From the NCBI GenBank assembly GCA_038064915.1, contig JBBTSB010000004.1, positions 24,874 to 88,873 of the forward strand: DNA of 64,000 nucleotides, read 5' to 3'. The DNA is from Patescibacteria group bacterium (GTDB lineage Bacteria; Patescibacteriota; Minisyncoccia; 2-02-FULL-40-12; IGHO2-01-FULL-4-A). Position numbers and translations under genes: made by a program. Below, piece by piece: positions 2,398 through 61,590 of this stretch. Numbering within the stretch: position 1 is the stretch's first letter; every line of letters starts with the position of its first letter. The notes under the pieces are model-generated. The model saw nothing but the letters and a program-made list of their open reading frames with translations, was not told where the DNA came from and searched no databases.

Positions 2398-2985
2398 ATG
2401 ATTGGCTATCTTGCTGGCAAACTGCAGGCGATTACCCCAAAATACGCGATTCTTGACGTAAACGGCGTAGGCTATAGGGTGGTCATCGCAGAAAAAATGC
2501 ACTCTAGTCTAGCATCGGTAGGCGAAGAAATCAAGCTCTACACGCACTTTACGATGAACCCTCGGGATGGCCAAGTGGAGCTCTATGGATTTGCTACACA
2601 GGAAGAGTTGAGTTTCTTTGAACTGCTTACCAGTATTTCAGGCATCGGTCCCAAGAGCGCGCAAGGGATACTCGCCAAAGCCGAACTACAGCCATTACAG
2701 CTGGCAATCTTGCAGGGAGATGAAGTCTATCTCAAAAAAGTAGCAGGCCTAGGTCCCAAAACCGCCCAACGCCTCATCCTGGAACTCAAAGAAAAAATCG
2801 CCAGCGTCCACCTAAGTCCGGGCTCACAAGCAAACCTTACATCAGAATCCGAGGCGGTCGAAGCACTCATGGCCCTTGGATACTCGCAATATCAGGCACG
2901 AGATGCCTTGAAGCTCGTCGACTCCAAACTCGAAAAATCGGAGCACAAGATCACCGCGGCATTGAAAATATTGGCAAAAAAATGA
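2398..2985 (+). CDS. ruvA: Holliday junction DNA helicase subunit RuvA
   Basis: 195 aa; MIGYLAGKL start, OB domain and tandem HhH motifs (GIGPKSAQGIL, VAGLGPKTAQRLI). Confidence 0.9.
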   Translation: MIGYLAGKLQAITPKYAILDVNGVGYRVVIAEKMHSSLASVGEEIKLYTHFTMNPRDGQVELYGFATQEELSFFELLTSISGIGPKSAQGILAKAELQPLQLAILQGDEVYLKKVAGLGPKTAQRLILELKEKIASVHLSPGSQANLTSESEAVEALMALGYSQYQARDALKLVDSKLEKSEHKITAALKILAKK

Positions 2986-3818
2986 TTTCTTTTTTGCAAT
3001 CTGATGAGTGGGCGCAATTTCAAAGATCCCTTGGGCGGAAGGTTTTTGACGTCGAAGGCACAAAGGTGATTCGGCATGATTTGACGTTTAAAAAAAATTA
3101 CCTATATGTGCCGTACCCGGATACGGTGCCGAATTTGCTTCCATTGGCGGAGCAAGAAAAAAGCATTTTCATAAAAGCAGAGCCCATGCACGATGAAGTT
3201 GCTCAAGCGCTCGTGCATCAAGGCTATCAAAAATCATCCAAAAACGTCCAGCCACATCGGACCGTCGTACTTGATCTCACAAATAGCGAAGATGCATTGT
3301 TGAGCGCAATGCACCACAAGACGAGGTATAACATCCGCGTTGCGGAGCGGGAACATGTGGTCGTGGAGCAAAGCACGGATACTAATATTTTTTTGAGCTT
3401 AATGAAAAAGACTACCGCACGCGATAAATTTCACACACATTCCGAATGGTACTATCATCGCCTCATGGCATCTCGCGGATTGGATACAAAACTCTGGATC
3501 GCATGGCACGATGGCAAACCCATCGCCTCCGCTATCACGCTGACCTACGGCGATACGGCATATTATCTCCATGGTGCGTCAGACTACGAATATCGCTCTC
3601 TTATGGGCCCGTATCTTTTGCATTGGAAGATACTTTTAAACTTTAAACACTTAAACTTTAAACTTTATGATTTCTGGGGAATTGATGCAAAAAAATGGCC
3701 CGGCGTGACCCGATTCAAACTTGGCTGGGGAGGGCGGACAATCGAATATCCGGGGGCGTTTGATTTTGCTATTTCAAAACCTTGGTATTTTGCGTATACT
3801 TTATACCATGGATTATAG
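2982..3818 (+). CDS. FemAB-family peptidoglycan interpeptide aminoacyltransferase, copy 1
   Basis: 278 aa; FLQSDEWAQFQ N-terminus and C-terminal YYLHGASDYEYRSLMGPYLLHW...YDFWGI typical of FemX/FemAB; ATGA overlap with ruvA; contains the TTTAAAC repeat element. Confidence 0.75.
   Translation: MISFLQSDEWAQFQRSLGRKVFDVEGTKVIRHDLTFKKNYLYVPYPDTVPNLLPLAEQEKSIFIKAEPMHDEVAQALVHQGYQKSSKNVQPHRTVVLDLTNSEDALLSAMHHKTRYNIRVAEREHVVVEQSTDTNIFLSLMKKTTARDKFHTHSEWYYHRLMASRGLDTKLWIAWHDGKPIASAITLTYGDTAYYLHGASDYEYRSLMGPYLLHWKILLNFKHLNFKLYDFWGIDAKKWPGVTRFKLGWGGRTIEYPGAFDFAISKPWYFAYTLYHGL
3634..3667. repeat. TTTAAAC-heptamer repeat element, in frame in femAB copy 1
   Basis: TTTTAAACTTTAAACACTTAAACTTTAAACTTTA encodes LLNFKHLNFKL. 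Confidence 0.65.
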
Positions 3819-4077
3819 AGATATCATTCGCAAAAACCCCGGACTAATCTGGTACAGCCGAAATTATGACGGCTTTGAGGAGTCAACCGTGGTAGAGGCA
3901 GTTTTAAATTATGGTGATTGGGATGAATTTAAAGCATTAAAAGAATCTCTTAGTGTGGAGAGAGTTGCAGAGATTTTTCGAGAGAACGCCTTTCGCGAGC
4001 GCACCAACTACCGCGACGATGTTCGCCAATACTTCACCCTATATTTTGACAAACATGCACCGCGAGATACTCACTAA
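3808..4077 (+). CDS. small hypothetical protein (90 aa), possible partner of the downstream AbiEii-like gene
   Basis: ATG at 3808 overlaps the femAB stop by 11 nt; the ORF ends 23 nt inside the downstream nucleotidyltransferase gene; no recognisable domain. Confidence 0.35.
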   Translation: MDYRDIIRKNPGLIWYSRNYDGFEESTVVEAVLNYGDWDEFKALKESLSVERVAEIFRENAFRERTNYRDDVRQYFTLYFDKHAPRDTH

Positions 4078-4666
4078 AGAACAAATCGAACTACTTCCCG
4101 TGATATCGAAATTCAAAGGAGATTTTGGGCTCGTCGGAGGTACTGCCGCAGCCTTGCACATAGGACATCGGCGCTCAATTGACTTCGATATGTTTTCATT
4201 AAAGTCATTTGTCAATGAGGATATACGAAAAATTTTGACAAGCGCATTTCCCATTGAACAAGAATTAGTAGATCGAGATGGCGAATATACCATCAAGATA
4301 AATAGTGTAAAAGCCACATTTTATCAGTATCGCATTCCCATTGATTTTCCGGATGTTTTTGAAAACTCGATGCGAGTAGCTGATCTCGTGACCATTGCCG
4401 CCATGAAGATCCATGCGTTAGGGAGTCGCGCCAAGTGGAAGGATTACGTTGATCTCTACTTCATTTTAAAAAACAAACATACCATAGATGAGCTGGATGC
4501 AAAGGCGCATGAGATTTTGCATGGTGAATTCAATGCACGTCTTTTTCGACAGCGACTTGCGCTATTTTTCGATATTCGCTACGACGAACAGGTGGAGTTT
4601 ATGCCTGGATTTGAAGTCTCATCTCGCGAAATTAAAGAGTATTTACGAGAAGTGAGCTTAAGCTAA
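4055..4666 (+). CDS. AbiEii/DUF1814-like nucleotidyltransferase (putative type IV toxin-antitoxin or abortive-infection toxin)
   Basis: GLVGGTAAALHIGHRRSIDFDMF matches the GGTAL...R.S.DxD signature of AbiEii nucleotidyltransferases; start chosen at the in-frame ATG 4055 (the ORF track extends to 3953). Confidence 0.6.
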   Translation: MHREILTKEQIELLPVISKFKGDFGLVGGTAAALHIGHRRSIDFDMFSLKSFVNEDIRKILTSAFPIEQELVDRDGEYTIKINSVKATFYQYRIPIDFPDVFENSMRVADLVTIAAMKIHALGSRAKWKDYVDLYFILKNKHTIDELDAKAHEILHGEFNARLFRQRLALFFDIRYDEQVEFMPGFEVSSREIKEYLREVSLS

Positions 4667-4794: not shown

Positions 4795-4834
4795 GGCACG
4801 TGTGGCCACCCAGGCCATACGTGCCCTTTTGTTT
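4795..4834 (+). promoter_or_regulatory. leader hairpin plus U tract (attenuator-like intrinsic terminator) in the 5' UTR of the small ORF at 4882
   Basis: GGCACGT...ACGTGCC 7-bp stem enclosing a tGGCC/GGCCa sub-stem, followed by CTTTTGTTT. Confidence 0.35.
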
Positions 4835-11247: not shown

Positions 11248-12367
11248 TTTTTGGTACGCAGTTGCCCTGCTCGTTGCTTCTATCATTGGCATAGGTTTTT
11301 TTGGCATACCGTACACCTTTGCGCAGACGGGATTTGGCATCAGCTTGATTATTTTTGTTGTGTTGACTGGTCTTGTTTTGCTTACGAGTCTGTTGTACGG
11401 AGAGGTCATCTTGCGGACACATAGCCGGCATCAATTTGTCGGTTTTGTACACGCCTATCTTGGGCCTTGGGCTCGCCGCATCAACCTCTTTACGTTTTGG
11501 GTTTCCGTTTATGGAGCTATTATCGGTATTTTGATTATTAACGGGCAGTTTTTGAGCACCATCATCGGCTCATTTGGTTTTCACATGAGTCCGGTTGCAC
11601 TCAGCATGGTGTTCTTGATACTTGCCACCATACTTGTATATGCGGGATTAAAAACTGTTTCTCATGTTGATTTTTTTGTGATGGTGGCCGCCATTGCGAT
11701 CATCCTGCTTCTGGTCATTGTGGGTATGCCGGAAATCAAGGCCGATCATTTTACGTTCGCCACCGGACTTCCTTGGTTTTTACCCTTTGGCGTGATTCTT
11801 TTTTCTCTCAATGGAACTCAGGGAATTCCTCTGGTTCGTGAAGCTCTCATTGGTAGAGAGCATTTATTTCGGCGGGCGCTTATGTATGGAACGCTTATTC
11901 CCGCTGGTGCTTACTTGATGTTCACGATTGCTGTTTTGGGTATCTCCGGTCCGGGAACCGTTCCCGAAGGAATTCCCGGTCTTGTCGGACATCTCGGGTC
12001 ATGGGTTGTTGTCATAGGGTCGCTTTTTGGCTTTCTGACATCATCAACTATTTTTCTGAGCATTGTCACTGCATTTCGTACCTCGCTTCGAGAAGATCTT
12101 CATTTGCGACGGCGGGGAGATTTTTTACTACCGCTTCTTCCGCCGGTGATTTTGTTTTTGCTTGGTGTGCAAAACTTTATTGAAATCATTGGTCTCGTTG
12201 GAGGAGTGGCAGTGAGCATTGATATGATCTTGCTCCTGTTCGTATACGCAAAAGCAAAAGATCATGGCACGCGCATTCCCGAATATTCCATGAATATCCC
12301 AAATTCTGTGCTCTATGGTATGATGCTCTTGTTCGCATGTGGCGCACTCTACACACTTATTGCTTGA
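11228..12367 (+). CDS. amino acid permease-like polytopic membrane transporter
   Basis: about 11 TM segments; resembles the aromatic/neutral amino acid transporter family; start uncertain (11207, 11228 or 11243). Confidence 0.5.
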   Translation: MNLGMNNFWYAVALLVASIIGIGFFGIPYTFAQTGFGISLIIFVVLTGLVLLTSLLYGEVILRTHSRHQFVGFVHAYLGPWARRINLFTFWVSVYGAIIGILIINGQFLSTIIGSFGFHMSPVALSMVFLILATILVYAGLKTVSHVDFFVMVAAIAIILLLVIVGMPEIKADHFTFATGLPWFLPFGVILFSLNGTQGIPLVREALIGREHLFRRALMYGTLIPAGAYLMFTIAVLGISGPGTVPEGIPGLVGHLGSWVVVIGSLFGFLTSSTIFLSIVTAFRTSLREDLHLRRRGDFLLPLLPPVILFLLGVQNFIEIIGLVGGVAVSIDMILLLFVYAKAKDHGTRIPEYSMNIPNSVLYGMMLLFACGALYTLIA

Positions 12368-13530
12368 GGTGGTTATTTCCGGTATTCGTTTTTTCCGTGC
12401 CTTTTCAGGCGCGTTTTGTTCTTGGATCGTGGACGCAACCCTTCAATGAATGGACGAGCGCGTTTTTGTGGGGAACGGATATTTTATTTGTTCTTCTCAT
12501 AATTTTCAATTTCCAATTTTCAATTTCCAAAAAAGACTTGTTGCTGTTTGCCTTTTTGGCAATCGCGGCGATTTCTATTTCCCAGGCTCTCATTCCCGCT
12601 GTTTCATGGTATCGGTTTGCGAAATTGCTTGAATACATACTTCTTTTTTTCTTCGTGCGGCAGCAAAAGCTTTCTCCACTCGTATACAAGGCCGTTGTGG
12701 CTTCAGCTCTATTGCAATCGCTGATCGCCATCGTCCAATATGTCGTTCAACATGATCTTGGCTTGCGCCTCCTTGGCGAGAGTGTACTTGATCCCCATGG
12801 TCAAGGCGTTGCGGTGGTCGCTGCAAATTCTCAGACGTACCTTCGCGCCTATGGCACGACGCCACATCCCAATATTCTTGCAACATGGCTCATGCTGGGA
12901 ATTTGGGCTCTGTGGGCATGGAGGCCAAAATGGCACCTATTCGTACTTCCTGTTTTGCTTGTTTCACTATTTCTGACTTTTTCCCGCACTGCCATCGCCG
13001 TGTGGGTCTTGTGTTCGATGATTATGTGGTTCTTTCACCGTCGAGACCCTCTCAAGATCATTGCGGTCACCGCTGTAGTTGGTTTTCTTTTCGCAATCAG
13101 TTTTTGGCCTCAAGTGTATTCTCGTTTACATATTTCTTCTAGCGATGAAGCTGTTTCGCAAAGAGTATTTTACAATGATATAGCCGGAAAAAATATACTA
13201 ACCGTTGGCAACGGCATTGGCCAGTTTGTTCCAAATCTTATGCAGAAGCTTCCTCTCTATCCTGATTTTATCTACCAGCCTGCGCACAATATGTTCTTGC
13301 TCATGATGAACGAAATAGGAATTTTGGGATTGGCAACTTTTTTACTATGGCTTTTTGTTGCTGTTCGGAAGTCTCACGTCTTGTTGGCAATTATCTTGTT
13401 GGCGGTATTTGATCACTATTTTTGGACACTTCAGCAAGGGGGATTAATCATGTGGGGATTGTTGGGATTTTTTGTTCGTGATAGAATACAAGAGCCAACT
13501 TATGAGCAAGAAAATCCTTCTATTTCCTAG
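12337..13530 (+). CDS. O-antigen ligase (Wzy_C/WaaL-like) family membrane protein
   Basis: polytopic protein with TFSRTA motif in a periplasmic loop; start uncertain; carries a tandem AATTTTCAATTTCC repeat in frame. Confidence 0.55.
   Translation: MWRTLHTYCLRWLFPVFVFSVPFQARFVLGSWTQPFNEWTSAFLWGTDILFVLLIIFNFQFSISKKDLLLFAFLAIAAISISQALIPAVSWYRFAKLLEYILLFFFVRQQKLSPLVYKAVVASALLQSLIAIVQYVVQHDLGLRLLGESVLDPHGQGVAVVAANSQTYLRAYGTTPHPNILATWLMLGIWALWAWRPKWHLFVLPVLLVSLFLTFSRTAIAVWVLCSMIMWFFHRRDPLKIIAVTAVVGFLFAISFWPQVYSRLHISSSDEAVSQRVFYNDIAGKNILTVGNGIGQFVPNLMQKLPLYPDFIYQPAHNMFLLMMNEIGILGLATFLLWLFVAVRKSHVLLAIILLAVFDHYFWTLQQGGLIMWGLLGFFVRDRIQEPTYEQENPSIS
12495..12522. repeat. tandem 2 x AATTTTCAATTTCC inside the waaL-like CDS
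   Basis: aattttcaatttcc aattttcaatttcc encodes IIFNFQFSIS; same 14-mer family as the groES-groEL spacer inverted repeat. Confidence 0.5.
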
Positions 13531-14939: not shown

Positions 14940-15944
14940 ATGGCTTTTCGGATTATGCTTGCTGGCGGGGGGAGTGGGGGACATGTATATCCTCTTGTTG
15001 CCATTGCTGAAGAAATCAAACGTCTTGCGCCGGAGTACCACAAGCATGTTCGCATGCGGTTTATTGGCGACGGCGTTCTCTTGGCGCAGGAGGCGAAAAA
15101 AACTGGTGTTTCATGTTGTTTGATCCTTGCACCGAAATGGCGACGCTACAAAAGTGGTAAAAATTTTTTGGATATTCTCAAAGTCCCTGTCGCACTTCTT
15201 CAATCTCTTTTTTATGTTTGGACCTACATGCCCGATGTCATGCTCGTAAAGGGCGGTTATGCGGCATTTTTTCCGGCACTTGCGGCTCGGCTCATGTTTA
15301 TCCCTCTGGTGGTGCATGAGTCGGACTCTGTCCCCGGCAAAACAAACGCCTACTGGGGGCGACATGCGCGGCGCGTATTTGTCTCATTTGAGCATGCGGC
15401 GCAATTTTTTTCCTCCGGACAGGCGGAACTCGTCGGGCAACCAATTCGTCACGAATTTCGTGCTCTTCCTGCAATAAAGCCCCATGACAAGCCCATTGTC
15501 TTTGTTACGGGAGGGAGTCAAGGCGCGCAGGCCATCAACGAAATTGTTGACCTAGCTATGGCGGAACTTTCCAAGTCTTTCCATGTCATTCATCAGCGTG
15601 ATGGATCCTGGGATGCAGAGCAAATGGCCCAGGCTTATGCGGATGCGGATGTCATCGTATCGCGCGCAGGATCGGCAATATTTGAAATCGCAGCCGTTGG
15701 AAAACCCGCCGTTCTGATTCCCCTCGATGGCTCCGCACAACAACACCAGCTTTTCAATGCGGAGGAATTTTCCGGGCATGGTGCGATTGTGGTTCCGCAA
15801 GCCAACCTTCAACCCCACATCCTCATCCATGAGATCCAGCGGGCTTATGATGAGAGGGAAAAGCGAAGCCTCGCGATAAGAGCTTTTGCAAAGCCCGACG
15901 CCGCAATGATCATAGCAAAAGAACTTCTTACCGCACGACGATGA
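14940..15944 (+). CDS. murG: undecaprenyldiphospho-muramoylpentapeptide beta-N-acetylglucosaminyltransferase
   Basis: 334 aa; GGGSGGHVYPLVAIAEE N-terminal motif and GT28 C-terminal domain. Confidence 0.9.
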   Translation: MAFRIMLAGGGSGGHVYPLVAIAEEIKRLAPEYHKHVRMRFIGDGVLLAQEAKKTGVSCCLILAPKWRRYKSGKNFLDILKVPVALLQSLFYVWTYMPDVMLVKGGYAAFFPALAARLMFIPLVVHESDSVPGKTNAYWGRHARRVFVSFEHAAQFFSSGQAELVGQPIRHEFRALPAIKPHDKPIVFVTGGSQGAQAINEIVDLAMAELSKSFHVIHQRDGSWDAEQMAQAYADADVIVSRAGSAIFEIAAVGKPAVLIPLDGSAQQHQLFNAEEFSGHGAIVVPQANLQPHILIHEIQRAYDEREKRSLAIRAFAKPDAAMIIAKELLTARR

Positions 15945-29820: not shown

Positions 29821-30486
29821 ATGCTTGAGTTTTTAAAGTTCTATAATCGTCCTCAAACCTACAAGGCGGAGATTCGCGTTGAGGTAGAAAATAGGAGCAA
29901 TAAAAAAGCAAAAGGACATCTTGTGGTGCCGTTGCCGCGGACGACGGAATATCAGACAACAACACCGGAGTTTCGCGAGCCGACGATGGCATTTGATCTT
30001 GAACTGGAAGCAGGAGAAAAAAAATCCGTGTCGGTTGTTTTCAAGGCCCACGTGATGCCACGCAAATACAATGGCAAGATTGCACCAGAAATTGTCCAGG
30101 CAAATGAATTTGTGATAAGCTACCTGACCTACGGCAATGCTATAGATGGGTTGTACACCGCGCAAGAGGCGCGAGAGAAGCGGGTCGTGGACTGTGGCGG
30201 ATTTGATACGCTCTTGCAAGATGAGCTCAAGAAGAAGGGCATTGCGAGCAATGTAGTGGCCGGATTTTGGAGCGATGGGAAAATGCATGCTTGGCTAGAG
30301 ATTGAAGGAAATATTTCCGCGGATCCGTCTATGGAATGGCTTCGTGCACGAAGAAAAACCAAAAAATCGGGAAAACTTGGTTTTGTCGGCAGTGACCGGA
30401 TAGTTTTTTCGATGGGAGAGCCCTTCTTACAAAAACCAATCACTGATTTACCACATGAAAACCATCTTTACATCACTCGCGCCTAA
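29821..30486 (+). CDS. transglutaminase-like cysteine peptidase domain protein
   Basis: CGGFDTLL...GKMHAWLEIEG fits the Cys...His-x-W-x-E core of the transglutaminase-like superfamily. Confidence 0.55.
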   Translation: MLEFLKFYNRPQTYKAEIRVEVENRSNKKAKGHLVVPLPRTTEYQTTTPEFREPTMAFDLELEAGEKKSVSVVFKAHVMPRKYNGKIAPEIVQANEFVISYLTYGNAIDGLYTAQEAREKRVVDCGGFDTLLQDELKKKGIASNVVAGFWSDGKMHAWLEIEGNISADPSMEWLRARRKTKKSGKLGFVGSDRIVFSMGEPFLQKPITDLPHENHLYITRA

Positions 30487-31615
30487 CGTCGAAAAAGACG
30501 ATGCTCAACTTGCGTTTCGGCTTTTGTTTTCGCCGTGGCAATGGAAGCGTGGTCCATATATACAAAAATTTTATGAAACGCTGAAAAACTATCTCGGTCG
30601 CGAATATGCGTTCGTGTTTGAAAGCGGCCGTACGGCACTCTATGCAATTCTCAAGTGTTTGGATCTGAAAACAGATGACGAAGTTCTTTTACAGGCTTTT
30701 ACATGCGTTGCCGTGCCCAATGCGGTACTTTGGGCAGGAGCAAAGCCGGTGTATGTGGATTGCAACGATAGCTATACGATGTCAGTTGAAGATCTGAAGC
30801 GAAAAATTACCCCGCGGAGCAAAGTACTTATCATCCAACATACGTTTGGAATTGAATCGGATATGCCCGAACTCATGGCTGTCGCGCGAGAGCACAAGCT
30901 TTTTGTCATTGAAGATTCAGCACATGCACTTGGGTTGGTCAAGCCTCAAGCTGATGCGGCGTTTTTTAGTTTTGGACGCGACAAGATTATATCTTCTACG
31001 TTTGGTGGCGCGGTGGCGACGAATGATCCGGTTTTGGGAGAGCACCTTCGCGCGATCAAGCTCGGTATGCTGTATCCTTCGGGAAGATGGATTTTACAGC
31101 AGTTATTTTACCCCATCATCATGTACATCGTACGAAAAACATACGATTATGGAATCGGGAAAGTATTACTCTCCCTTGTACGATCATTTCGATTGATTTC
31201 CAAGCCGGTGTATCCGGAAGAAAAACTTGCAAAAAAGCCCGCGTGGCAACCACGCCGATTGCCCAATGCCATAGCACTACTCGCTTTGCAACAGTTTGTG
31301 AAACTTGAGAGATTTAATACGCACCGCAAACGTATTGCTTCGATGTATCAAAAACATTTTTCCGGTTCAGGAATTTTGCGATTTGCGCTTCATGCAAACG
31401 TTCCTCGGCAAAAAGGAATATTCCTGGGAGATTGGTACACGACCGCAATAGCGCCTGCTGGAGTGAGCTATGATGCCATCGGCTACGATCCTTCAACCTG
31501 TCCAAATGCCGAGCGGCTTACTAGGGACATCATCAACCTTCCTACCGATATTCATATTACCGAACAAGATGCACAGCGGATCATTTCTACAATCAAAAGC
31601 CTGGGAGCAAACTAA
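30455..31615 (+). CDS. DegT/DnrJ/EryC1/StrS family PLP-dependent aminotransferase
   Basis: AFTCVAVPNAVLWAGAKPVYVDC, EDSAHALG and SFGRDKIISSTFGGAV motifs. Confidence 0.8.
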   Translation: MKTIFTSLAPNVEKDDAQLAFRLLFSPWQWKRGPYIQKFYETLKNYLGREYAFVFESGRTALYAILKCLDLKTDDEVLLQAFTCVAVPNAVLWAGAKPVYVDCNDSYTMSVEDLKRKITPRSKVLIIQHTFGIESDMPELMAVAREHKLFVIEDSAHALGLVKPQADAAFFSFGRDKIISSTFGGAVATNDPVLGEHLRAIKLGMLYPSGRWILQQLFYPIIMYIVRKTYDYGIGKVLLSLVRSFRLISKPVYPEEKLAKKPAWQPRRLPNAIALLALQQFVKLERFNTHRKRIASMYQKHFSGSGILRFALHANVPRQKGIFLGDWYTTAIAPAGVSYDAIGYDPSTCPNAERLTRDIINLPTDIHITEQDAQRIISTIKSLGAN

Positions 31616-32420
31616 CCAAGCGCTCGGCCATCAGACATTCCGGGTCGGTGGTGTGCTTTGTATAAAAACGATTGCCCGTCGCGGGACGTTTTTACTTGTT
31701 CCCCATACACGGACGATCAATCAGGAAATCATCGAACTCGGGCGGAACGAGCACTGCGATTTTATCCGCGTTTGTCCGTTGACTCTCGATTCTCCGGAGG
31801 CACGTTTAAACTTTAAACTCTTAAACTTTAAACGTGCTCCTATTCACGTCCATCCGGAACACGCATGGATTGTGGAACTCAAGGATGATGAGACATTGTT
31901 TGCAGGTATGCGCAAAACCACACGCTACTCTATAAAAAAAGCACAAAAGGACGGAATAGTTGCCCACATCAGTACGGACCTTGAAGCATTTTGGAAGCTG
32001 TATATACTAACTGCTCAACGACAGCAGTTTGTGCCATTTTCGCGAAAGTTACTGGAAGCGGAATTCCAAGCTTTTGGAGACGATGCATTCATCGTCATGA
32101 CTGACCACGCCTCTGCATTTGTCGTGACAACGGAAGATGAAGCCTTCTATCATCATGGTGCATCAACCCATCACCCAACGGCTTCGTATCTAGTGCAATG
32201 GACGGCGATGCAGGAGGCACGGCGCCGCGGAAAGAAATTTTACAATTTCTGGGGGGTGTGGGACGATCCCCATTCACCGCAGTATGGATTGTCTCAATTC
32301 AAACGAGGCTTTGGAGGGTTTCAAGAATCATACGTGCCGACGCAAGATTTTATTTTGACAAAAAAATACTGGCTTAATTACATCATTGAAAAAATTCGCA
32401 AGCTACAAAGAGGATTTTGA
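31569..32420 (+). CDS. FemAB-family aminoacyltransferase, copy 2
   Basis: FLQSKAWEQ N-terminus and C-terminal YLVQWTAMQEARRRGKKFYNFWGV; start set at ATG 31569 to avoid overlap with the DegT gene; contains the TTTAAAC repeat element. Confidence 0.7.
   Translation: MHSGSFLQSKAWEQTNQALGHQTFRVGGVLCIKTIARRGTFLLVPHTRTINQEIIELGRNEHCDFIRVCPLTLDSPEARLNFKLLNFKRAPIHVHPEHAWIVELKDDETLFAGMRKTTRYSIKKAQKDGIVAHISTDLEAFWKLYILTAQRQQFVPFSRKLLEAEFQAFGDDAFIVMTDHASAFVVTTEDEAFYHHGASTHHPTASYLVQWTAMQEARRRGKKFYNFWGVWDDPHSPQYGLSQFKRGFGGFQESYVPTQDFILTKKYWLNYIIEKIRKLQRGF
31804..31833. repeat. TTTAAAC-heptamer repeat element, in frame in femAB copy 2
   Basis: GTTTAAACTTTAAACTCTTAAACTTTAAAC encodes RLNFKLLNFKR. Confidence 0.65.
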
Positions 32421-33198
32421 GGAGCAAAAACGCCGCAAGTTTATTTCGCGTGCGAACCGTTTTATTATTTCTGCTCTCATCACTTCTGCGATCGCAGTTG
32501 TTCTTTTGTTTTTAGCGAATCTTTTTGATGTTCGGGTATTGACGATTCAGTCGCCGTCGTTGATTCCTGCCGAAGACGTGGAAGCAAAAGCGTGGGAAGT
32601 GCTCAATGACCGTCGTTTTGGCATAGCTCGCAAGAAGAATATTCTCCTTTTTTCCCCGCAAAAAATCGGTCCCGCGCTGCAAAAAGAATTTCCGCGTATT
32701 GATGCAGTCGATATCCGTCGCACCTCACTACACGAACTTTCCATTGTTGTTTACGAGCGGGTATCTGTGGGTTTGTGGTGTATTATGATCATGCAACAGT
32801 GCTACTACTATGACGCGTCGGGAACCGCATATGCCAACATCGTGCCATCCTCCGGATATCTTTTTGTTGCGGTTAATGATTATCGGGATCGCAACATATC
32901 ACTTGGTGAGTCAGTCGCCCCTGAAGACTGGCGTTTGCATATCTCTGAAGTCAAAAAAATTCTTCAGTTTGGAGGAATACCTATCACCTCAATTGAAATA
33001 CCCGGAGATTCTCATGATGAGTTTATTATCATTACCCGTGAAGGATGGAAGATTTTTTATGTTAACGATGGCTCGATTCGCACGCAGACCAACAGTCTCT
33101 TGGTGTTTTTGCGCGAAAAACTTGCCCCTTCAGCACGTGCAAATCTGGAATATGTTGATCTTAGAATCGAGGACCGGATATATTATAAACAAAAATAG
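32386..33198 (+). CDS. FtsQ/DivIB-like cell division protein (single TM plus POTRA-like domain)
   Basis: N-terminal cytoplasmic tail, one TM, then a beta-rich extracytoplasmic domain. Confidence 0.5.
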   Translation: MKKFASYKEDFEEQKRRKFISRANRFIISALITSAIAVVLLFLANLFDVRVLTIQSPSLIPAEDVEAKAWEVLNDRRFGIARKKNILLFSPQKIGPALQKEFPRIDAVDIRRTSLHELSIVVYERVSVGLWCIMIMQQCYYYDASGTAYANIVPSSGYLFVAVNDYRDRNISLGESVAPEDWRLHISEVKKILQFGGIPITSIEIPGDSHDEFIIITREGWKIFYVNDGSIRTQTNSLLVFLREKLAPSARANLEYVDLRIEDRIYYKQK

Positions 33199-34855
33199 AG
33201 TTACCGATGGTAGTGACGGGCTGATAGTCGGCAAGCCAGGAGTATTTTTTGTATTTTTCGTTTTGCAGGAAGGTCGCTGATATTGCGAGCCAGCCATCGG
33301 TTTGGCTCTTTTGCAAAAAATCTCGCTCATTTTTATATTTATCCGATGTAAGCCACACGAAGGAATCACCCAAGTAGTACTGCTGGTCCGCCCAGCCGAA
33401 GTAATCAAGCTCGATCTTTTTGATATCGTTTTTCTCAACCCAATCAGCGAAACGCTTCAGGTCTTGTCCCCAATCCAGGTTTGAATCGACGACATACCGA
33501 TAGCCACCACTCGGACCACCGACGGTTTGGTTAAAATATGTTAAGTAATATGGGAAAATTCGAAAGTTTTCCAAAAGAAACCATGCGATCAATACCGGCA
33601 CCGCAAAAAATACTTTCCTAGGCAAACGAACAAGTTGCCCGGAAACCAGAATGATCATGAACGGATATACGGGCAGGAGATGCCTCACGCCGATATTCAA
33701 GGTGCTATGGATGCTCGTGGCCCAATAGATCACGAGCCATAAAATCATCGCGATTTCGTCGATGTGATCTTTAAACTTGAAACGTGAAACTTTAAACCTT
33801 GCTATCGCGATTGTGATAGCGGTCAATAACAGCGCGAGCCAGGAAAGCGGTTCTTTGATCAGATAAACGAACGGAAAATAGATCGGTCCCGCGCTCGTGG
33901 TAACGGTATCTCGAAAGTAGACCGTATTTCCGCCGGCGGATCGTTGTGTTACCATAAGCAACCCCAAACCATACTGCGCAGGAGCCCGCAGGATCGGTTT
34001 TCCGGATGCCCACACAACCGGATCAGCAAGTAGTCGATTTCCAAATGTTTGGAGCAACGTTTCGGTGTCGTGATGTTGGCGGTCAATTGGATAGTGCCAA
34101 ACGTGAAATGCATACACAGGCCATACGACAACAACAAACCCAACGATCATCAACAAGGCTGTCTTGGTGATCATTCGCCAATTCCAAGTGCAAGCGACAA
34201 TCACGAAAAGAGGAATAAGAAGAACAGTCGAAAATTTCATGAGCAAAGCCAGTCCAAACATAACAGCTGCATACCAAAAATATTTTCGTGTTGGTTCTTT
34301 TAAGTAACGTACAAACCAATAAGTTGCAATGAGTACGCCAAGCGCCGCAGGAATATCGGTAGTCACAAAGCGGCTATGCGCCATGACGGTCGGTGAAAAT
34401 GAAAAGAGCGTGACCGCCAAAAGGCCAGCCTTGTCTCCATAGCGTTGTCGCGTCCACCAAAACACCATCCATCCAGCAATAATAAAGATGATAAGCGGAG
34501 GAATTTTTGCTACATGAGTAATGAGCTCAGCATTGTTGCCGGTATGGTAAATCAGTTTCCGACCAAACTCCCACTGGTCGTTGATGTTGGTGGTCCAGGA
34601 ATTTGTTGCAAATGCGTCGTGATTGAGTTCAAGAGGTAGGAGCGCAATACCGGCAAGATCTTTTGCCAACGGCGGATGCTCGGGATTGAGCCGCATATCC
34701 TGCTTTGCAACATACGAATATCCTGCACCAATGTGAGGATCCTCATCAACGATAATTGAATCATTCCAAGCGCTGGCATAAGCAACGACAGCGGCGATTG
34801 CGATAATGATTACTGCACTAGCGCGTGACAATCGAAATGAGAGTTTCATATTCAT
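33161..34855 (-). CDS. GT-C glycosyltransferase, PMT/ArnT (GT39/GT83)-like
   Basis: IVDEDPH loop-1 motif and about 11 TM segments; contains the TTTAAAC repeat element. Confidence 0.7.
   Translation of the reverse strand: MNMKLSFRLSRASAVIIIAIAAVVAYASAWNDSIIVDEDPHIGAGYSYVAKQDMRLNPEHPPLAKDLAGIALLPLELNHDAFATNSWTTNINDQWEFGRKLIYHTGNNAELITHVAKIPPLIIFIIAGWMVFWWTRQRYGDKAGLLAVTLFSFSPTVMAHSRFVTTDIPAALGVLIATYWFVRYLKEPTRKYFWYAAVMFGLALLMKFSTVLLIPLFVIVACTWNWRMITKTALLMIVGFVVVVWPVYAFHVWHYPIDRQHHDTETLLQTFGNRLLADPVVWASGKPILRAPAQYGLGLLMVTQRSAGGNTVYFRDTVTTSAGPIYFPFVYLIKEPLSWLALLLTAITIAIARFKVSRFKFKDHIDEIAMILWLVIYWATSIHSTLNIGVRHLLPVYPFMIILVSGQLVRLPRKVFFAVPVLIAWFLLENFRIFPYYLTYFNQTVGGPSGGYRYVVDSNLDWGQDLKRFADWVEKNDIKKIELDYFGWADQQYYLGDSFVWLTSDKYKNERDFLQKSQTDGWLAISATFLQNEKYKKYSWLADYQPVTTIGNSIFVYNISGPRF
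33769..33798. repeat. TTTAAAC-heptamer repeat element (reverse orientation), in frame in the GT39-like gene
   Basis: CTTTAAACTTGAAACGTGAAACTTTAAACC; the minus strand encodes RFKVSRFKFK. Confidence 0.55.
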
Positions 34856-36422: not shown

Positions 36423-36698
36423 ATGGCAAAGCAAACAATTCTAACAAAAGAGGATTTTGAAAGCATTTTGGATAAAAAGCTCAAGAGTCACACAAAGGAT
36501 ATTAAAGTTCATGTGACTAAAGAAATCAAAAGAGAGGTTGGTGATCTAGCCGCAATGACTGCGCGTGGATTTCGATCTGTTGATGAGCGTTTTGACCAAG
36601 TTGACCGAAAGATTGATAAATTGACGACTATATCCGAAAATCACGAGAAACGCATCAAACGCGTGGAAAAGGCGGTTGGCATTCCTGAAATTGTATGA
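36423..36698 (+). CDS. small coiled-coil protein, paralog family member 2
   Basis: 91 aa; shares LxxHTKxI...GF...ER...KL with members 1 and 3. Confidence 0.45.
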   Translation: MAKQTILTKEDFESILDKKLKSHTKDIKVHVTKEIKREVGDLAAMTARGFRSVDERFDQVDRKIDKLTTISENHEKRIKRVEKAVGIPEIV

Positions 36699-36979
36699 AA
36701 AACAAAGTGAGTAAAGAACTCCAGGAGACGGCAAATCAAGTACAGCAAGAAATCGCGGATAGATTTGTTAAGATTTTTGCACAAAAAATCGAGGAAATGG
36801 TTGAGGAATTTAGCGGGCATTTGGACAAGCACATGGATGAGCTCGAGGATTTAATTGAAGAAGGTTTTATGAGCCTCCATGAGCATTTGCAAACTTCCGA
36901 GCGTGTGAAGCAAATCGAGAAGCGGCTGAAGAAACTCGAAAAGCTTGACGAAAAAATCGAAAAGCGCTATATTACCTAA
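36695..36979 (+). CDS. small coiled-coil protein, paralog family member 3
   Basis: 94 aa; overlaps member 2 by 4 nt; shares the family motif. Confidence 0.45.
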   Translation: MKNKVSKELQETANQVQQEIADRFVKIFAQKIEEMVEEFSGHLDKHMDELEDLIEEGFMSLHEHLQTSERVKQIEKRLKKLEKLDEKIEKRYIT

Positions 36980-37865: not shown

Positions 37866-38153
37866 ATGAAAATCAAACCACTTCATGACCGGGTGCTTCT
37901 CGAGGCGGTAAAAGAGGAGCGCAAAAAGGGCGGAATCATTTTGCCCGAGACGGTCGAAAAGGAACGTCCGCAGGAAGGTATCGTCATTGCCGTCGGTCCC
38001 GGCAAGTTTGACGAAGATGGGAAGCGTATGCCCATGACCCTCAAAAAGGGCGACAAGGTTTTGTTTACGAAGTATGGTCCATCAGAGGTCAAGGTGGACG
38101 ATAAGGAGTACTTGATAGCACGAGAAGACGATATTATAGCAGTAATTGAATAA
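37866..38153 (+). CDS. groES: co-chaperonin GroES
   Basis: 95 aa; MKIKPLHDRVL...IIAVIE. Confidence 0.95.
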   Translation: MKIKPLHDRVLLEAVKEERKKGGIILPETVEKERPQEGIVIAVGPGKFDEDGKRMPMTLKKGDKVLFTKYGPSEVKVDDKEYLIAREDDIIAVIE

Positions 38154-38155
38154 TT

Positions 38156-39877
<1,722 letters not shown>

Positions 39878-39917: not shown

Positions 39918-39953
39918 CACAAGCCTCACAGAAATGCTGGGCTTGTGGGTTTA
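39918..39953 (+). terminator. hairpin terminator after groEL
   Basis: CACAAGCC tcacagaaatgct GGCTTGTG followed by GGTTT. Confidence 0.4.
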
Positions 39954-40198
39954 AATTCCAAAAACTCGAAACCCCGCGGCCGTTCACTTTTAGCAAACCG
40001 GTTATCGCAGGGTCGAGGTACTACTAGTCTTTCGGAGGCAAAAGCCCCGCGAAGGCGATGTTTCGACGAAGCCATTTCCGTTCTTCGGGTGGGGTTTCTT
40101 CCCACCGCCGAAGTACTTCCTTGTCGTCAACGCTCATGCTTTTAGTATAGATCCAATTTTAAAATCTTTGCAAGCACGGACTTGCAGCGTTTAGGGTT

Positions 40199-43811: not shown

Positions 43812-44492
43812 ATGTCCAAACTTGTTTTTGATATAGAAACCATCGGTGAGGATTTTGATCTGATTGACGAGACCACCCAGGAAATTCTCACCAAGTACGA
43901 TGATGATATCGAAAAAGTAAAAAACGGCCTTGGATTTTCGCCGTTGACCGGACAAATCGTTTGTATTGGCGTGCTTGATGTTGAAAAAAACAGGGGCGCA
44001 CTGTATTATCAAGCGCCAGACGACGACTCCTCCTTCGCTAAAGCTTCGGAGGACGAGGCTTCTAATTTTAAATTTATCGTAGCCTCGGAAAAAGAAATGC
44101 TTGAAAAGTTTTGGCAGGGGATTACCGCGTACGATCAAGTAGTCAGCTTCAACGGTCGCGCCTTTGATGCTCCATTTCTTGCAATCCGCTCCGCCATCCA
44201 CAGCGTTCGTCCCTCAAAAAATCTCATTCCTTATCGTTACGCGACTGACACCAACCACATCGATCTCTACGATCAACTGACGTTTTATGGATCGAGTCGG
44301 AGCAAAGGGAATTTGCATATGTTTTGTCGGGCGTTTGGCATCAAAAGCCCGAAAGCTGACGGTGTCACTGGTGATGATGTGACGAGGCTCTTTAAGGAAA
44401 AAAAATACCTCGACATCGCCCGCTACAACGTCGGCGATCTCAAAGCCACGGCGGAACTCTACAAATATTGGAATGAATTTATTAGATTTTAA
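43812..44492 (+). CDS. DEDD-type 3'-5' exonuclease (PolB-exo/YprB-like RNase H fold)
   Basis: LVFDIETIG Exo I motif and downstream Exo II/III-like acidic residues. Confidence 0.6.
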   Translation: MSKLVFDIETIGEDFDLIDETTQEILTKYDDDIEKVKNGLGFSPLTGQIVCIGVLDVEKNRGALYYQAPDDDSSFAKASEDEASNFKFIVASEKEMLEKFWQGITAYDQVVSFNGRAFDAPFLAIRSAIHSVRPSKNLIPYRYATDTNHIDLYDQLTFYGSSRSKGNLHMFCRAFGIKSPKADGVTGDDVTRLFKEKKYLDIARYNVGDLKATAELYKYWNEFIRF

Positions 44493-47205
44493 AAAATATT
44501 ACCAGCAACTCAACAAAGAACAGCGTCTTGCTGTAGATTCAATCGAGGGGCCGGTAATGGTGATTGCTGGTCCCGGCACGGGGAAGACGCAGATATTGAC
44601 GCTCCGCATTGCAAATATTCTCCAGAGAACGGATATTCCTGCGGAGGCGATTTTGGCAGTGACATTTACGGAAGCTGGTGTGATTGCGATGCGAAAACGG
44701 CTTACTGAAATCATCGGCTCACAGGCCTACGAAGTCAATATCAATACTTTCCACGGCTTTGCGCAAAACGTCATACAAACCTACCCCGAATCATTTCCTC
44801 GCATCATTGGCTCGGTAAATATCACGGAAGCTGATCAGATCCGTATCATGGAAGAAATTTTGGAAGAAACGAAGGGATTGAAAATTTTGCGTCCTTTTGG
44901 TGACCGCTTGCACTATCTACGCGACGCTTTGCACGCGATTCAAACTCTCAAACGCGAAGGCCTAAGCGTGGAAGATTTTGAAAAAATCGTGGAACAAGCA
45001 GCAAAGGCCTATGATCCTGAAGAAATCAATACAAAAGCAGAGCGTATCAAACTGGAAAAACAAATAGAAAAAAACGCCGAGCTCGCCACGATTTACGGCG
45101 AATACGAGAAAAGATTAACCAAAGAAAAACTCTATGATTTTGACGATATGATCACCGAAGTGCTTGCAGCACTAATGACGAATGATGAATTACGAATGAT
45201 TTTGCAGGAGCAATATCAGTACGTGCTCGTAGATGAACATCAGGATACGAACAACGCACAGAATAGGATCTTGGAATTGTTGATGAGTTATCATGATGAT
45301 CCCAATCTTTTCATAGTAGGCGATGAGAAGCAGGCGATTTTTCGATTTCAGGGCGCGAGTCTCGAAAACTTTCACTATTTTAAAAATAAATTTCCGGAAG
45401 CAAAGCTCATTACGCTCACTGAAAATTATCGTTCTACGCAATCAATTCTCGATGCGGTAGCTACAAAATTAAGAGCACTTGCTGGACACAAGGAAAAAAA
45501 AATTCAACTTCTTGAGGCCAGTGATTCAGATAGCGAACTCTTTACAATTGCCAAGCTCATTAAAGCAAATGAAAACAGCGCTGTGCTCTATCGCGATAAT
45601 CGTGATGTAATCCCACTTGCGAGGATGTTTGATAAGCTCGGCATTCCCTACCACATTGAGTCTGACCTCGATATTTTGACTGATCCCGACATCCGTAAGT
45701 TGCTTCTCATTTTTCATGCCATTGAGCAGTTTGACAAAAAAGTCATCTACCTTGATCTTTGGGGAGTCGATGCTTTTGAGGCAGAACAGCATCTTCCTCG
45801 AATCCAGAAGCAACTTTCTCTGTGGAAGACCGTGGCGTACAACAAATCGCTCTTGGAACTGTTCGATACGGTGGTGCAGGAGTCGGGTCTTCTCAAGTCT
45901 ATCTTAGCTCGGCCAGATGCAGTCGAAGCCATTGAAAAACTGTCGGTTCTTCTCGATCAAATCCGTCGCATGCTCGAGGTGCATCCGGGAGCGAATTTGC
46001 AGGATTTTTTGGCGCAGCTTGACCGCATGGATCGCCATAGACTATCCATCAAGGGCGCACTAGCCGGTGCGCATCCAGGAAAAGTACGTCTCATGACCGC
46101 ACATCGCTCCAAGGGTCTTGAATTTGACTATGTCTATGTTATCAATGCGTATGATGGACATTGGGGGAATCGAAAGCGAGTAGAGAAATTAAAGTTATTG
46201 ATACCAGAACAACAAGGCGCAGATGATGATCGCAATCTTTTTTATGTCGCTCTAACGCGCGCTCGCAAAGAAATCACTATTAGCTACGCAAAGATGTCTC
46301 TCGATCAGCGTGAGCAGATTCCATCACAGTTTATAGGAGAACTCAAGCAAGAATTAATCGAAAAAATCGAAGAAGAAAAGTTTGACAAACAAATACTATT
46401 TTCACCATCACGGCACACGGGAGCGACGGATATCAAGAATTTGGATTTTGTCAGAGAATTATTTAAGAAACGGGGTTTTGCGGTTACACACCTGAATAAT
46501 TACATCGAATGTCCCTGGAAGTATTTCTTTGTAAACCTGCTGCGCGTCCCCAAGGCCCCCGAAGCTCCGCAGATGTATGGAACAGCAGTGCATGCGGCGT
46601 TGAGCGATATTTTGAATGCCGAAACAAAATCAAAAACATATCTCATTAGTCAATTTAAAAAGCACTTAGCTGTTCAACACCTAAGTGTACATGAGCGGGA
46701 GGATTATGAGGAGCGCGGAGTGGAGGCGTTAGGGAAATATTGGGATGAATATCATGCAACATGGACAAATCCAGTGCTGACGGAGTATAAAATAAAGGGT
46801 GTAGAACTGACGTCTGAAATCTTGCTTACGGGGAACTTAGATAAAATAGAATTACTCAATGACCACGATGTAATTGTAACTGATTTCAAGACAGGCAAAC
46901 CAAAAAGCAGAAACGAAATTATGGGGAAAACTCGCACAGGTGATGCAAGCTATTATCGACAACTGGTCTTTTATAACTTGCTTCTGAATAAACACAAGAA
47001 CGGCATGTATAAAATGCAAGCAGGGGAATTGGATTTTGTTGAACACGGGAGGAAAGAGCAATTTCGAATTACGAATGACGAATGTCGAAATTTGGAAAAA
47101 GAAATTAAAAGAGTTGCAAACGAGATACTAAATCTCAAATTCTGGAACAAAAAATGTGATGAAAAAAACTGCGAATGGTGCAGTTTGAGGGGGATGATGA
47201 AGTGA
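44473..47205 (+). CDS. UvrD/PcrA-type helicase fused to a C-terminal Cas4/AddB-like PD-(D/E)xK nuclease with Cys cluster
   Basis: GPGTGKTQ Walker A, DEHQDTN, TAHRSKGLEFDYV helicase motifs; C-terminal DFKTGK...YYRQL nuclease core and Cys at C...C-x4-C-x2-C. Confidence 0.8.
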   Translation: MNLLDFKKYYQQLNKEQRLAVDSIEGPVMVIAGPGTGKTQILTLRIANILQRTDIPAEAILAVTFTEAGVIAMRKRLTEIIGSQAYEVNINTFHGFAQNVIQTYPESFPRIIGSVNITEADQIRIMEEILEETKGLKILRPFGDRLHYLRDALHAIQTLKREGLSVEDFEKIVEQAAKAYDPEEINTKAERIKLEKQIEKNAELATIYGEYEKRLTKEKLYDFDDMITEVLAALMTNDELRMILQEQYQYVLVDEHQDTNNAQNRILELLMSYHDDPNLFIVGDEKQAIFRFQGASLENFHYFKNKFPEAKLITLTENYRSTQSILDAVATKLRALAGHKEKKIQLLEASDSDSELFTIAKLIKANENSAVLYRDNRDVIPLARMFDKLGIPYHIESDLDILTDPDIRKLLLIFHAIEQFDKKVIYLDLWGVDAFEAEQHLPRIQKQLSLWKTVAYNKSLLELFDTVVQESGLLKSILARPDAVEAIEKLSVLLDQIRRMLEVHPGANLQDFLAQLDRMDRHRLSIKGALAGAHPGKVRLMTAHRSKGLEFDYVYVINAYDGHWGNRKRVEKLKLLIPEQQGADDDRNLFYVALTRARKEITISYAKMSLDQREQIPSQFIGELKQELIEKIEEEKFDKQILFSPSRHTGATDIKNLDFVRELFKKRGFAVTHLNNYIECPWKYFFVNLLRVPKAPEAPQMYGTAVHAALSDILNAETKSKTYLISQFKKHLAVQHLSVHEREDYEERGVEALGKYWDEYHATWTNPVLTEYKIKGVELTSEILLTGNLDKIELLNDHDVIVTDFKTGKPKSRNEIMGKTRTGDASYYRQLVFYNLLLNKHKNGMYKMQAGELDFVEHGRKEQFRITNDECRNLEKEIKRVANEILNLKFWNKKCDEKNCEWCSLRGMMK

Positions 47206-61161: not shown

Positions 61162-61232
61162 GGGCTGTTGATAGGATACTTGCAAAAACCTAGCAAATAC
61201 GCCTATAATTAAATATCAAGGTCGATATGTAC

Positions 61233-61262
61233 TTTAAATCTTAAACATTTAAACTCTAAACC
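61233..61262. repeat. TTTAAAC-heptamer repeat element copy in the hup 5' UTR
   Basis: CTTTAAATCTTAAACATTTAAACTCTAAACC between a TATAAT at 61205-61210 and the hup ATG. Confidence 0.6.
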
Positions 61263-61265
61263 TAT

Positions 61266-61553: not shown

Positions 61554-61590
61554 AAGGTTCGACCTTAATGAAGTCTCAAGGTCGAACCTT
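61554..61590. other. perfect 13-bp hairpin downstream of hup
   Basis: AAGGTTCGACCTT, 11-nt loop, AAGGTCGAACCTT; no U tract on the + strand. Confidence 0.4.

Follow-up and report, generated by a model that had tools for sequence, protein, structure and literature searches.

TTTAAAC heptamer arrays inside unrelated genes of a Patescibacteria group bacterium and their possible origin by slippage or short-tract conversion

How does one short repeat come to lie in frame inside several unrelated protein-coding genes? The question is raised by a 64 kb stretch of DNA from a Patescibacteria group bacterium (contig JBBTSB010000004.1 of assembly GCA_038064915.1, referred to here in its full length as the window), in which an original prediction had described a dispersed family of six elements, each composed of TTTAAAC-like heptamers, and had likened them to the Rickettsia palindromic elements (RPEs). 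We find that the family exists and that it is the commonest one within a wider class of heptamer arrays, and we favour, tentatively, the reading that its copies are microsatellite-like arrays produced by slippage or short-tract conversion and filtered by the reading frame, rather than transposed insertions with ends. Each copy consists of four TT(T/G)AAAC units with spacers of 0-2 nt, 29-30 nt in total, and the TTTAAAC copies are assigned a period of 7 by Tandem Repeats Finder. The six copies are as follows.

3635-3663, + strand: copy 1, TTTAAAC TTTAAAC AC TTAAAC TTTAAAC, sense in femAB-1 (2982-3818), peptide LLNFKHLNFKL at residues 218-229; the sequence read at 3634-3667 is TTTTAAACTTTAAACACTTAAACTTTAAACTTTA
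31805-31833, + strand: copy 2, TTTAAAC TTTAAAC TC TTAAAC TTTAAAC, sense in femAB-2 (31470-32420), peptide RLNFKLLNFKR
33770-33797, + strand: copy 3, TTTAAAC TTGAAAC G TGAAAC TTTAAAC, antisense to a PMT_2 glycosyltransferase gene (33161-34855, - strand), peptide RFKVSRFKFK
50980-51009, - strand: copy 4, TTTAAAC TTGAAAC TTTTAAAC ATTTAAAC, sense in the C-terminal tail of obg (50893-51834, - strand), peptide NFKLETFKHLN
52754-52783, + strand: copy 5, TTTAAAC AC TTAAAC TTGAAAC TC TTAAAC, sense in xseA (51848-52951), peptide FKHLNLKLLN
61233-61261, + strand: copy 6, TTTAAAT C TTAAAC ATTTAAAC TCTAAAC, forming the bulk of the hup 5' leader, which is without a Shine-Dalgarno sequence

Five of the six copies thus lie inside open reading frames (ORFs), and Pfam identifies the hosts as two FemAB paralogs, a PMT_2 glycosyltransferase, Obg and XseA. 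The 14-mer TTTAAACTTTAAAC, searched with up to two mismatches and with 100 shuffles as control, gave 12 matches in the window against 1.03 expected, all of them at the six named places, and none of the 100 shuffles attained 12. A scan for clusters of at least three TTTAAAC-like units found five in the window against 0.1 expected from order-3 Markov sequences, the glycosyltransferase copy being a weaker cluster. These data clearly show that a six-copy family in unrelated genes is present, as had been proposed, and that the 14-mer recurs exactly in both femAB paralogs at non-homologous positions. A degenerate seventh copy suggested to follow groEL (39951-39975) was undetected at every threshold used, and the assumption of an AT-rich genome did not hold, the GC content of the window being 0.43-0.49.

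The feature is natural, because the exact FemAB-1 protein occurs in two independent public assemblies, an NCBI metagenome-assembled genome (MAG; GCA_964360345.1, 'Patescibacteria group bacterium') and an independent Logan assembly, and an assembly artefact is thereby ruled out. A known RNA family or a tRNA-derived origin was likewise rejected, as neither tRNA genes nor any Rfam family at the gathering threshold were found in the 64 kb window. On comparing the flanks of the six copies, we found no shared termini, no target-site or direct duplications and no terminal inverted repeats. Copy 2, in femAB-2, is bordered by GCAC/GTGC, which lengthens its palindrome, and is predicted to form a hairpin of -15.4 kcal/mol (z = -7.6); the femAB-1 copy folds weakly and the other four do not, and a hairpin function for the TTTAAAC arrays is disfavoured, as just two of the six copies fold. 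TTTAAAC arrays occur at a density of approx. 0.1 per kb (seven copies in approx. 71 kb) and, counted over independent loci, are unbiased in orientation relative to the host gene (approx. six sense and five antisense). GC skew is positive over the whole window (1-64000), making the + strand the probable leading strand, and five of the six copies are forward on it, which is not significant.

That every coding copy is in frame, as the original prediction stated, is true. It is also uninformative, because each copy has essentially one stop-free frame. A pure TTTAAAC array contains TAA in all frames in either orientation, and a pure array of AATGACG, one of the sister units listed below, has stops in all frames. 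The coding TTTAAAC copies have exactly one stop-free frame in the orientation of the gene (the glycosyltransferase copy has two), and their 8-nt units (xC-TTAAAC) and TTGAAAC variants are located precisely at would-be stops; in the AATGACG family the variant AATTACG abolishes an in-frame TGA in the same manner. Periodicity goes as far as the reading frame permits, and in-frame placement is a selection filter and not a property of the element. We also considered programmed -1 frameshifting on U_UUA_AAC, the phase of which is correct in femAB-1, femAB-2 and obg, and rejected it, as the -1 frame reads TTT AAA CTT TAA, an immediate stop; the other unit families are not slippery.

The TTTAAAC copies have company in the window, where Tandem Repeats Finder reports six further period-7 arrays with other units, which are given below.

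12501-12530, + strand: AATTTTC AATTTCC AATTTTC AATTTCC, in frame in a Wzy_C-family ORF (12337-13530), peptide IFNFQFSIS
38152-38180, + strand: AATTTTC-type array with an inverted partner at 38198-38222, in the groES-groEL spacer
45174-45200, + strand: AATGACG AATGATG AATTACG AATGAT, in frame in a UvrD-helicase/PD-(D/E)XK nuclease ORF (44473-47205), peptide LMTNDELRMI
47060-47089, + strand: AATTTCG AATTACG AATGACG AATGTCG AA, in the same nuclease ORF, peptide RITNDECRN
57958-57991, + strand: a weaker A-rich period-7 array (TCAAAA / AAAATCA units), inside an MnmA-like ORF (57091-58203)

The groES-groEL spacer arrays are predicted to form a hairpin of -17.7 kcal/mol (z = -3.1), with the groEL ATG (38237) shortly downstream. 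The UvrD-helicase/PD-(D/E)XK nuclease is a 910-residue AddA-like protein, and its AATGACG unit and the peptide MTNDELRM are also found in the N-terminal region of FemAB at two related loci (L128 and L132). A longer unit of 21 nt, AGCGTGTGAAGAAAATCGAAA, is repeated 3.2 times at 36900-36966, overlapping a mechanically called ORF (36695-36979), and would encode a 7-residue peptide repeat if in frame.

We took a census of 808 kb of related Parcubacteria-type DNA, consisting of the window, 80 metagenomic loci with FemAB orthologs and loci L123 and L125. Among arrays of at least three copies, period 7 dominates with 61 arrays against 2.3 in shuffles, followed by period 6 (17 against 1.7) and period 8 (10 against 1.3). 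Long ORFs hold 52 of the 71 arrays of period 7-8, which comprise three units in 15 cases, four in 34 and five in 21, with one longer, and the ceiling of approx. five units is true of the non-coding arrays as well. At least 20 distinct unit sequences of this one format are present, several per genome, and five of them, TTTAAAC, AATGACG (MTNDELRM), AATTTTC (IFNFQFS), AAACTCT and AAATCCC, appear repeatedly, in different genomes and at sites unrelated to one another. TTTAAAC is the commonest family within this wider class of 3-5-unit heptamer arrays (approx. 21-35 nt).

The original prediction further suggested that the element overwrites native sequence without adding length, which proved correct for some copies and not for others. 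In FemAB-1 the array segment lies between the invariant HW and YD(F/L)WG, and there was no gap in 58 of 61 ortholog comparisons. XseA of L206 has RFAELDQALTEH opposite the window's TFKHLNLKLLNY, again with no gap, the region around this array being hypervariable throughout, so that local divergence is uninformative as a test for replacement. For Obg, however, the nearest orthologs without an array are approx. 4 residues shorter, and FemAB-2 is approx. 3 residues longer than distant FemAB relatives in alignments that are just 25-32% identical. At related loci many arrays are true in-frame insertions of 7 to 16 residues. Both modes, replacement and insertion, occur, and the gene-conversion-like copying that had been suggested fits the data better than insertion does.

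The FemAB site itself was not the surface loop for which a check had been proposed. In the AlphaFold model of FemAB-1 (mean predicted local distance difference test score, pLDDT, 91.7) residues 218-229 form the end of a helix (209-223), a turn and a strand (228-230), all with pLDDT >90, and as modelled the array occupies well-folded, ordered structure; the segment is an amphipathic helix with a native Leu-Lys spacing resembling that of the array. The FemAB proteins of L123 and L124 (= L132), 56-58% identical to the query, have CTTAAACCTTAAACGCTTAAACTTTAA(A/G)C at exactly matching codons. It had been allowed that LNFK-like peptides in relatives might be encoded by unrelated DNA; in these distant orthologs, however, it is the same TTAAAC DNA that specifies LNLKRLNFK, and the reading as a family is unrefuted. 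The closer orthologs P0002 (69%) and P0003 (67%, confirmed in DNA at L125) are without the array, and in a simple neighbour-joining tree, drawn without support values, the three FemAB array carriers are scattered, giving a patchy distribution.

At the same FemAB site other lineages carry other units, namely GCTATAA x4 (L128), a GTTACAT-type array (L127), AACCAGN (L149), GCTCTACA x3 with 3 additional residues (L129) and AATTCAA x4.9 with 7 additional residues (L152), the arrays of different units being mostly equal in length. The common version of the site, IIKQLKAEGLKQ, is non-periodic and has CTTAAG...TTGAAA at 15-nt spacing, which from its sequence is a plausible seed for an array. With regard to the surrounding genes, an AbiEii-family toxin gene (3953-4666) is directly downstream of FemAB-1, preceded by a small ORF without a Pfam match (3808-4077). 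The listed FemAB-2 ORF overlaps the end of a DegT-family aminotransferase ORF (30455-31615) over 31470-31615, and translation of FemAB-2 probably begins at the internal Met that precedes HSGSFLQSKAWEQ.

Turnover and persistence can both be followed at other genes. In Obg, L206 (82% identical) has the same array moved by one unit at each end, around a 24-nt core that is 100% identical, and in Wzy_C the 49% identical protein of L126 has an AATTTTC array at the matching site. L143 and L144 are approx. 90% identical on either side of one site in a beta-CASP (RNase J-like) gene, and the in-frame arrays at that site are unrelated: L143 (4784-4840) has (AAATCCC)x4 plus 22 nt, and L144 (15640-15726) has GTTTCTAG and CTAGAAAC arrays paired in inverted orientation over 85 nt. 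The leader of the L144 beta-CASP gene (15112-15136) contains ATTTGGG x3.6, the reverse complement of the in-gene unit of L143, and L139, 98.5% identical to L144, differs by exactly one ATTTGGG unit in a non-coding array. This one-unit difference is direct evidence of microsatellite-type slippage, and at the FemAB and beta-CASP hot spots one unit is swapped for another.

Are the arrays conserved as DNA or only as peptide? We compared, at codons with an identical amino acid in a pair of genomes, the use of the same codon inside the array and outside it, with the following results.

Obg, window and L206: array 10/10, outside 95/244, p = 1e-4
Wzy_C, window and L126: array 8/9, outside 77/196, p = 0.004
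FemAB, L123 and L124: array 9/11, outside 61/149, p = 0.01
FemAB, window and L123: array 7/8, outside 69/145, p = 0.03

In Obg the identity between the window and L206 ends at the borders of the array, where the flanks diverge, and because of this the identity is not that of a recent recombination tract, which we had considered as its cause. Something, be it nucleic-acid selection, biased conversion or repeated acquisition, holds the arrays to their family consensus.

The non-coding copy presents a similar picture of recurrence and absence. Copy 6 is preceded by a sigma-70-like promoter (61180-61209) and ends 4 nt short of the hup ATG (61266), with no Shine-Dalgarno sequence. Relatives conserve the promoter-like stretch that separates RNase Y from hup (TTGCAAAAAC...TATAAT...GGTCGAT; 61161-61265, compared with L263-L271), and in them the leader 3' of the promoter is 32-39 nt long, freely variable, AU-rich and also without a Shine-Dalgarno sequence. 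L269 has TTGAAAC TTTAAAC TCTTAAAC TTTAAAC at the matching place before the ATG and L267 a degenerate version of it; in L263 (94% identical HU) and L271 the leader is comparable in length, plainly AU-rich and free of any array. Directly after the hup stop there is an inverted pair of AAGGTTCGACCTT (61554-61590), which has the look of a terminator hairpin and was not flagged by the terminator scan; the AAGGTTCGACCTT motif is not above chance elsewhere in the window.

TTTAAAC arrays are not confined to this lineage. A scan for the four-unit pattern, with one genome per species, gave at least 120 loci; the matches listed are mostly from Bacteroidota, with others from Acidobacteria, Planctomycetota, Verrucomicrobia, Cyanobacteria and one Moraniibacteria MAG, and all 120 among the matches listed are intergenic. 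Among those listed with an ORF start downstream, the array is no more than 15 nt upstream of the ATG in 29 of 109 sense cases compared with 11 of 96 antisense cases. In viral contigs (TTTAAAC)4 is found at 9 loci, compared with 12 for (TTATAAC)4 and 34 for (TTAATAC)4, both matched in composition. Because these controls are no rarer in viral contigs, we take the cross-phylum matches for general heptamer repeats and do not read them as one element; a cosmopolitan shared TTTAAAC element was rejected, its counts in viral contigs being no higher than those of the control heptamers. In one planctomycete MAG (Gemmataceae; PLDW01000499.1, L098) the sequence near 4802-4830, TTTAAACTTTAAACTCTTAAACTTTAAAC, matches the femAB-2 copy at all 29 nt, TC spacer included.

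What process could give rise to such arrays? In the account that we tentatively prefer, strand misalignment out of register by 7 nt would both create the arrays and keep them periodic, by way of replication slippage, template switching and short-tract conversion, the last of these between units that adjoin and possibly from one array to another. Either whole units would be gained or lost, or the adjacent sequence would be copied over without net change in length. Selection would then pass those versions in which the frame is kept, stops are avoided and the peptide is tolerable, which may yield the mixed 7 + 8 spacing and the TTGAAAC variants and would leave room for arrays just in AU-rich leaders that lack a Shine-Dalgarno sequence and at permissive positions that evolve fast. 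Templated copy-over, starting from partial seeds like the FemAB CTTAAG...TTGAAA (Leu-Lys ... Leu-Lys), would have given the length-neutral coding copies, and conversion may hold the copies near the family consensus. This account explains why period 7 dominates and why unit families are numerous, as well as the one-unit polymorphism, the unit-swapping hot spots, the irregularities dictated by frame and the lack of ends.

Several observations weigh against this account. Neutral slippage does not predict the conservation of synonymous sites between diverged genomes, nor the recurrence of TTTAAAC, AATGACG and AATTTTC at many unrelated sites, nor a sharp ceiling of approx. five units that applies to non-coding DNA too. 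In addition, a step of +/-7 nt is lethal within a gene, so that a length-neutral origin requires the templated copy-over, which we infer, and the window's own copies show no one-unit polymorphism. Because conservation, unit recurrence and the ceiling are left unexplained, there is room for a binding function, for selfish spread driven by conversion or for an uptake-like drive. We think it unlikely, though worth stating, that the arrays belong to an actively maintained, sequence-specific system, in which either templated copy-over writes arrays of approx. 30 nt over existing sequence, folded parts of essential genes included, or the arrays are read by a single-strand nucleic-acid-binding protein; if so, selection or drive at the nucleotide level would override synonymous drift and would make the hot spots common to different genomes.

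Among the specific alternatives, the arrays could be functional nucleic-acid motifs under purifying selection, four units of approx. 7 nt being read by a multi-domain or oligomeric single-strand-binding protein (of cold-shock-domain or S1 type) or by a DNA-binding protein. The confinement of synonymous conservation to the array, the way in which diverged genomes share an array at a matching position (FemAB, Obg, Wzy_C, hup leader) and a size fixed at approx. four units in non-coding DNA too all speak for such a reader, and a tolerance of 7- and 8-nt spacing would suit flexible single-strand recognition; the hup copy fills a leader directly 5' of the ATG, and the sense excess close to start codons among the matches listed from other phyla (29/109 against 11/96) points the same way. 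However, at least 20 units in one format would require many readers, the closest hup relative lacks the array despite its 94% identical HU, and arrays turn over completely between 90%-identical strains. Because orientation is unbiased (the approx. six sense and five antisense TTTAAAC loci given above) and the unit families are numerous, a single dedicated reader is disfavoured, and we judge the motif explanation improbable. A very small selfish repeat, RPE-like or miniature mobile, that spreads either by inserting itself or by converting new sites non-reciprocally from copies already present seems to us distinctly doubtful. It would account for a multi-copy family that is patchy among orthologs, for the many in-frame insertions of 7-16 residues in relatives, for the inverted pairs that form hairpins and for the near-identity of the 29-nt TT[T/G]AAAC TTTAAAC TC TTAAAC TTTAAAC in the coding femAB-2 copy and the frame-free hup leader of L269, but not for the absence of termini, target-site duplication and conserved flank, the length neutrality in FemAB-1 and XseA, the change by single units or the way in which unit order and spacing differ among copies as the local frame dictates; no candidate mobilizing gene was identified. 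RPEs are palindromic insertions of approx. 100-150 bp that add residues. The arrays share with them the property of lying in frame inside unrelated protein genes without destroying these, but they consist of tandem heptamers over 30 nt, are for the most part not palindromic (two of the six fold), lack termini and duplications, are length-neutral at two tested sites and lie in ordered secondary structure, with many sister families; the resemblance to RPEs that had been proposed is not upheld.

The uptake signal sequences (USS) and DNA uptake sequences (DUS) of Pasteurellaceae and Neisseriaceae accumulate by mutation and homologous replacement; the extended Haemophilus USS, of approx. 30 nt, is similar to the arrays in size, and USS in coding regions are length-neutral at permissive sites. 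By analogy, the arrays might be preferred by a DNA-uptake or recombination machinery of these bacteria, taken as naturally transformable, and accrue by point mutation and homologous replacement. Like USS/DUS they are short motifs, length-neutral in genes at poorly conserved positions, found in both orientations, present in intergenic DNA too and conserved at the nucleotide level across genomes. Their density is nevertheless ten-fold lower (known uptake sequences reach approx. 1 per kb, the arrays approx. 0.1), several unrelated unit families lie side by side, and their tandem architecture, whole-unit slippage and insertion-type arrays are foreign to USS/DUS, all of which leaves such a drive little likelihood. 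That LNFK-type peptides are themselves selected, or follow by chance from codon and amino-acid usage, is suggested by the native Leu-Lys spacing of the FemAB helix, but one copy is non-coding and another antisense, the excess over shuffles is large, a period of 7 is not a multiple of 3 and synonymous positions are conserved, and we regard this protein-level explanation as highly improbable. As variation is concentrated at the T positions of the unit, adenine mutagenesis resembling that of diversity-generating retroelements was also considered and set aside, no search for a template repeat or reverse transcriptase having been made and many loci being involved. The small dispersed repeats (SDRs) of Nostoc, reported in 2008 by Elhai and co-workers, are said to be families of 21-27 nt, similar in size to our arrays, whose spread is unexplained; they are not known to be simple heptamer arrays inside housekeeping genes.

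No other long simple repeats of bacteria are, to our knowledge, as over-represented as those with a heptanucleotide unit, a fact recognized since 2007 and as yet unexplained. PMC4679880, citing Mrazek 2007, describes them as the most abundant class of long simple-sequence repeats (LSSRs) in prokaryotes and proposes slippage. The class to which the arrays belong is therefore already known, as heptanucleotide LSSRs, STRR, TAACTGA and GGGAATC arrays (PMC4679880, PMC4692102), and as summarized in these two papers (Mrazek et al. 2007), prokaryotic heptanucleotide LSSRs, the cyanobacterial STRR included, have the same head-to-tail 7-nt units, period-7 excess, genome-specific families and one-unit polymorphism as our arrays. 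The known LSSRs are described as mainly intergenic and under-represented in genes, whereas approx. three-quarters of the present arrays are in frame in ORFs, folded parts of housekeeping enzymes included, and are often length-neutral and conserved at synonymous sites across genomes. The GGGAATC arrays of Xanthomonas likewise prefer four units and occasionally form inverted pairs (PMC4692102); the arrays described here are AT-rich, and a G-quadruplex explanation for the four units is thus inapplicable. TAACTGA repeats of Beggiatoaceae, Cyanobacteria and Bacteroidetes (MacGregor 2015, PMC4679880) are found as 2-6 sense units a few nucleotides upstream of start codons, and a start-codon-proximal role was proposed for them. 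The hup-leader copy and many TTTAAAC arrays of other phyla are similarly start-proximal and sense, and here too in-frame stops limit overlap with genes; the unit, however, is different, and the window copies are mostly in genes, which the 8-nt and variant units enable. The tandem repeats of Borgs (PMC9879509) resemble ours in being de novo, fast-evolving, present in ORFs and intergenic DNA, discussed in terms of slippage and subject to strong selection for open ORFs, but those in Borg ORFs have units divisible by three and create disordered regions, in contrast with a 7-nt unit, a stop at approx. five units and a helix and strand of FemAB. In the literature searched we found no description of pervasive in-frame heptamer arrays in Patescibacteria genes, nor of length-neutral arrays in ordered segments, of shared hot spots with unit swapping or of synonymous-site conservation.

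For annotation these results carry a warning, in that short periodic peptides such as LNFKxLNFK, MTNDELRM and IFNFQFS in these proteins are products of DNA repeats and not protein motifs. This locus and approx. 80 related loci place heptamer arrays in an unexpected setting, in frame in the housekeeping genes of ultra-small bacteria, and the FemAB helix, the Obg tail and the hup leader constitute a comparative system in which copying in a 7-nt register, drive by conversion and a binding function may be probed.

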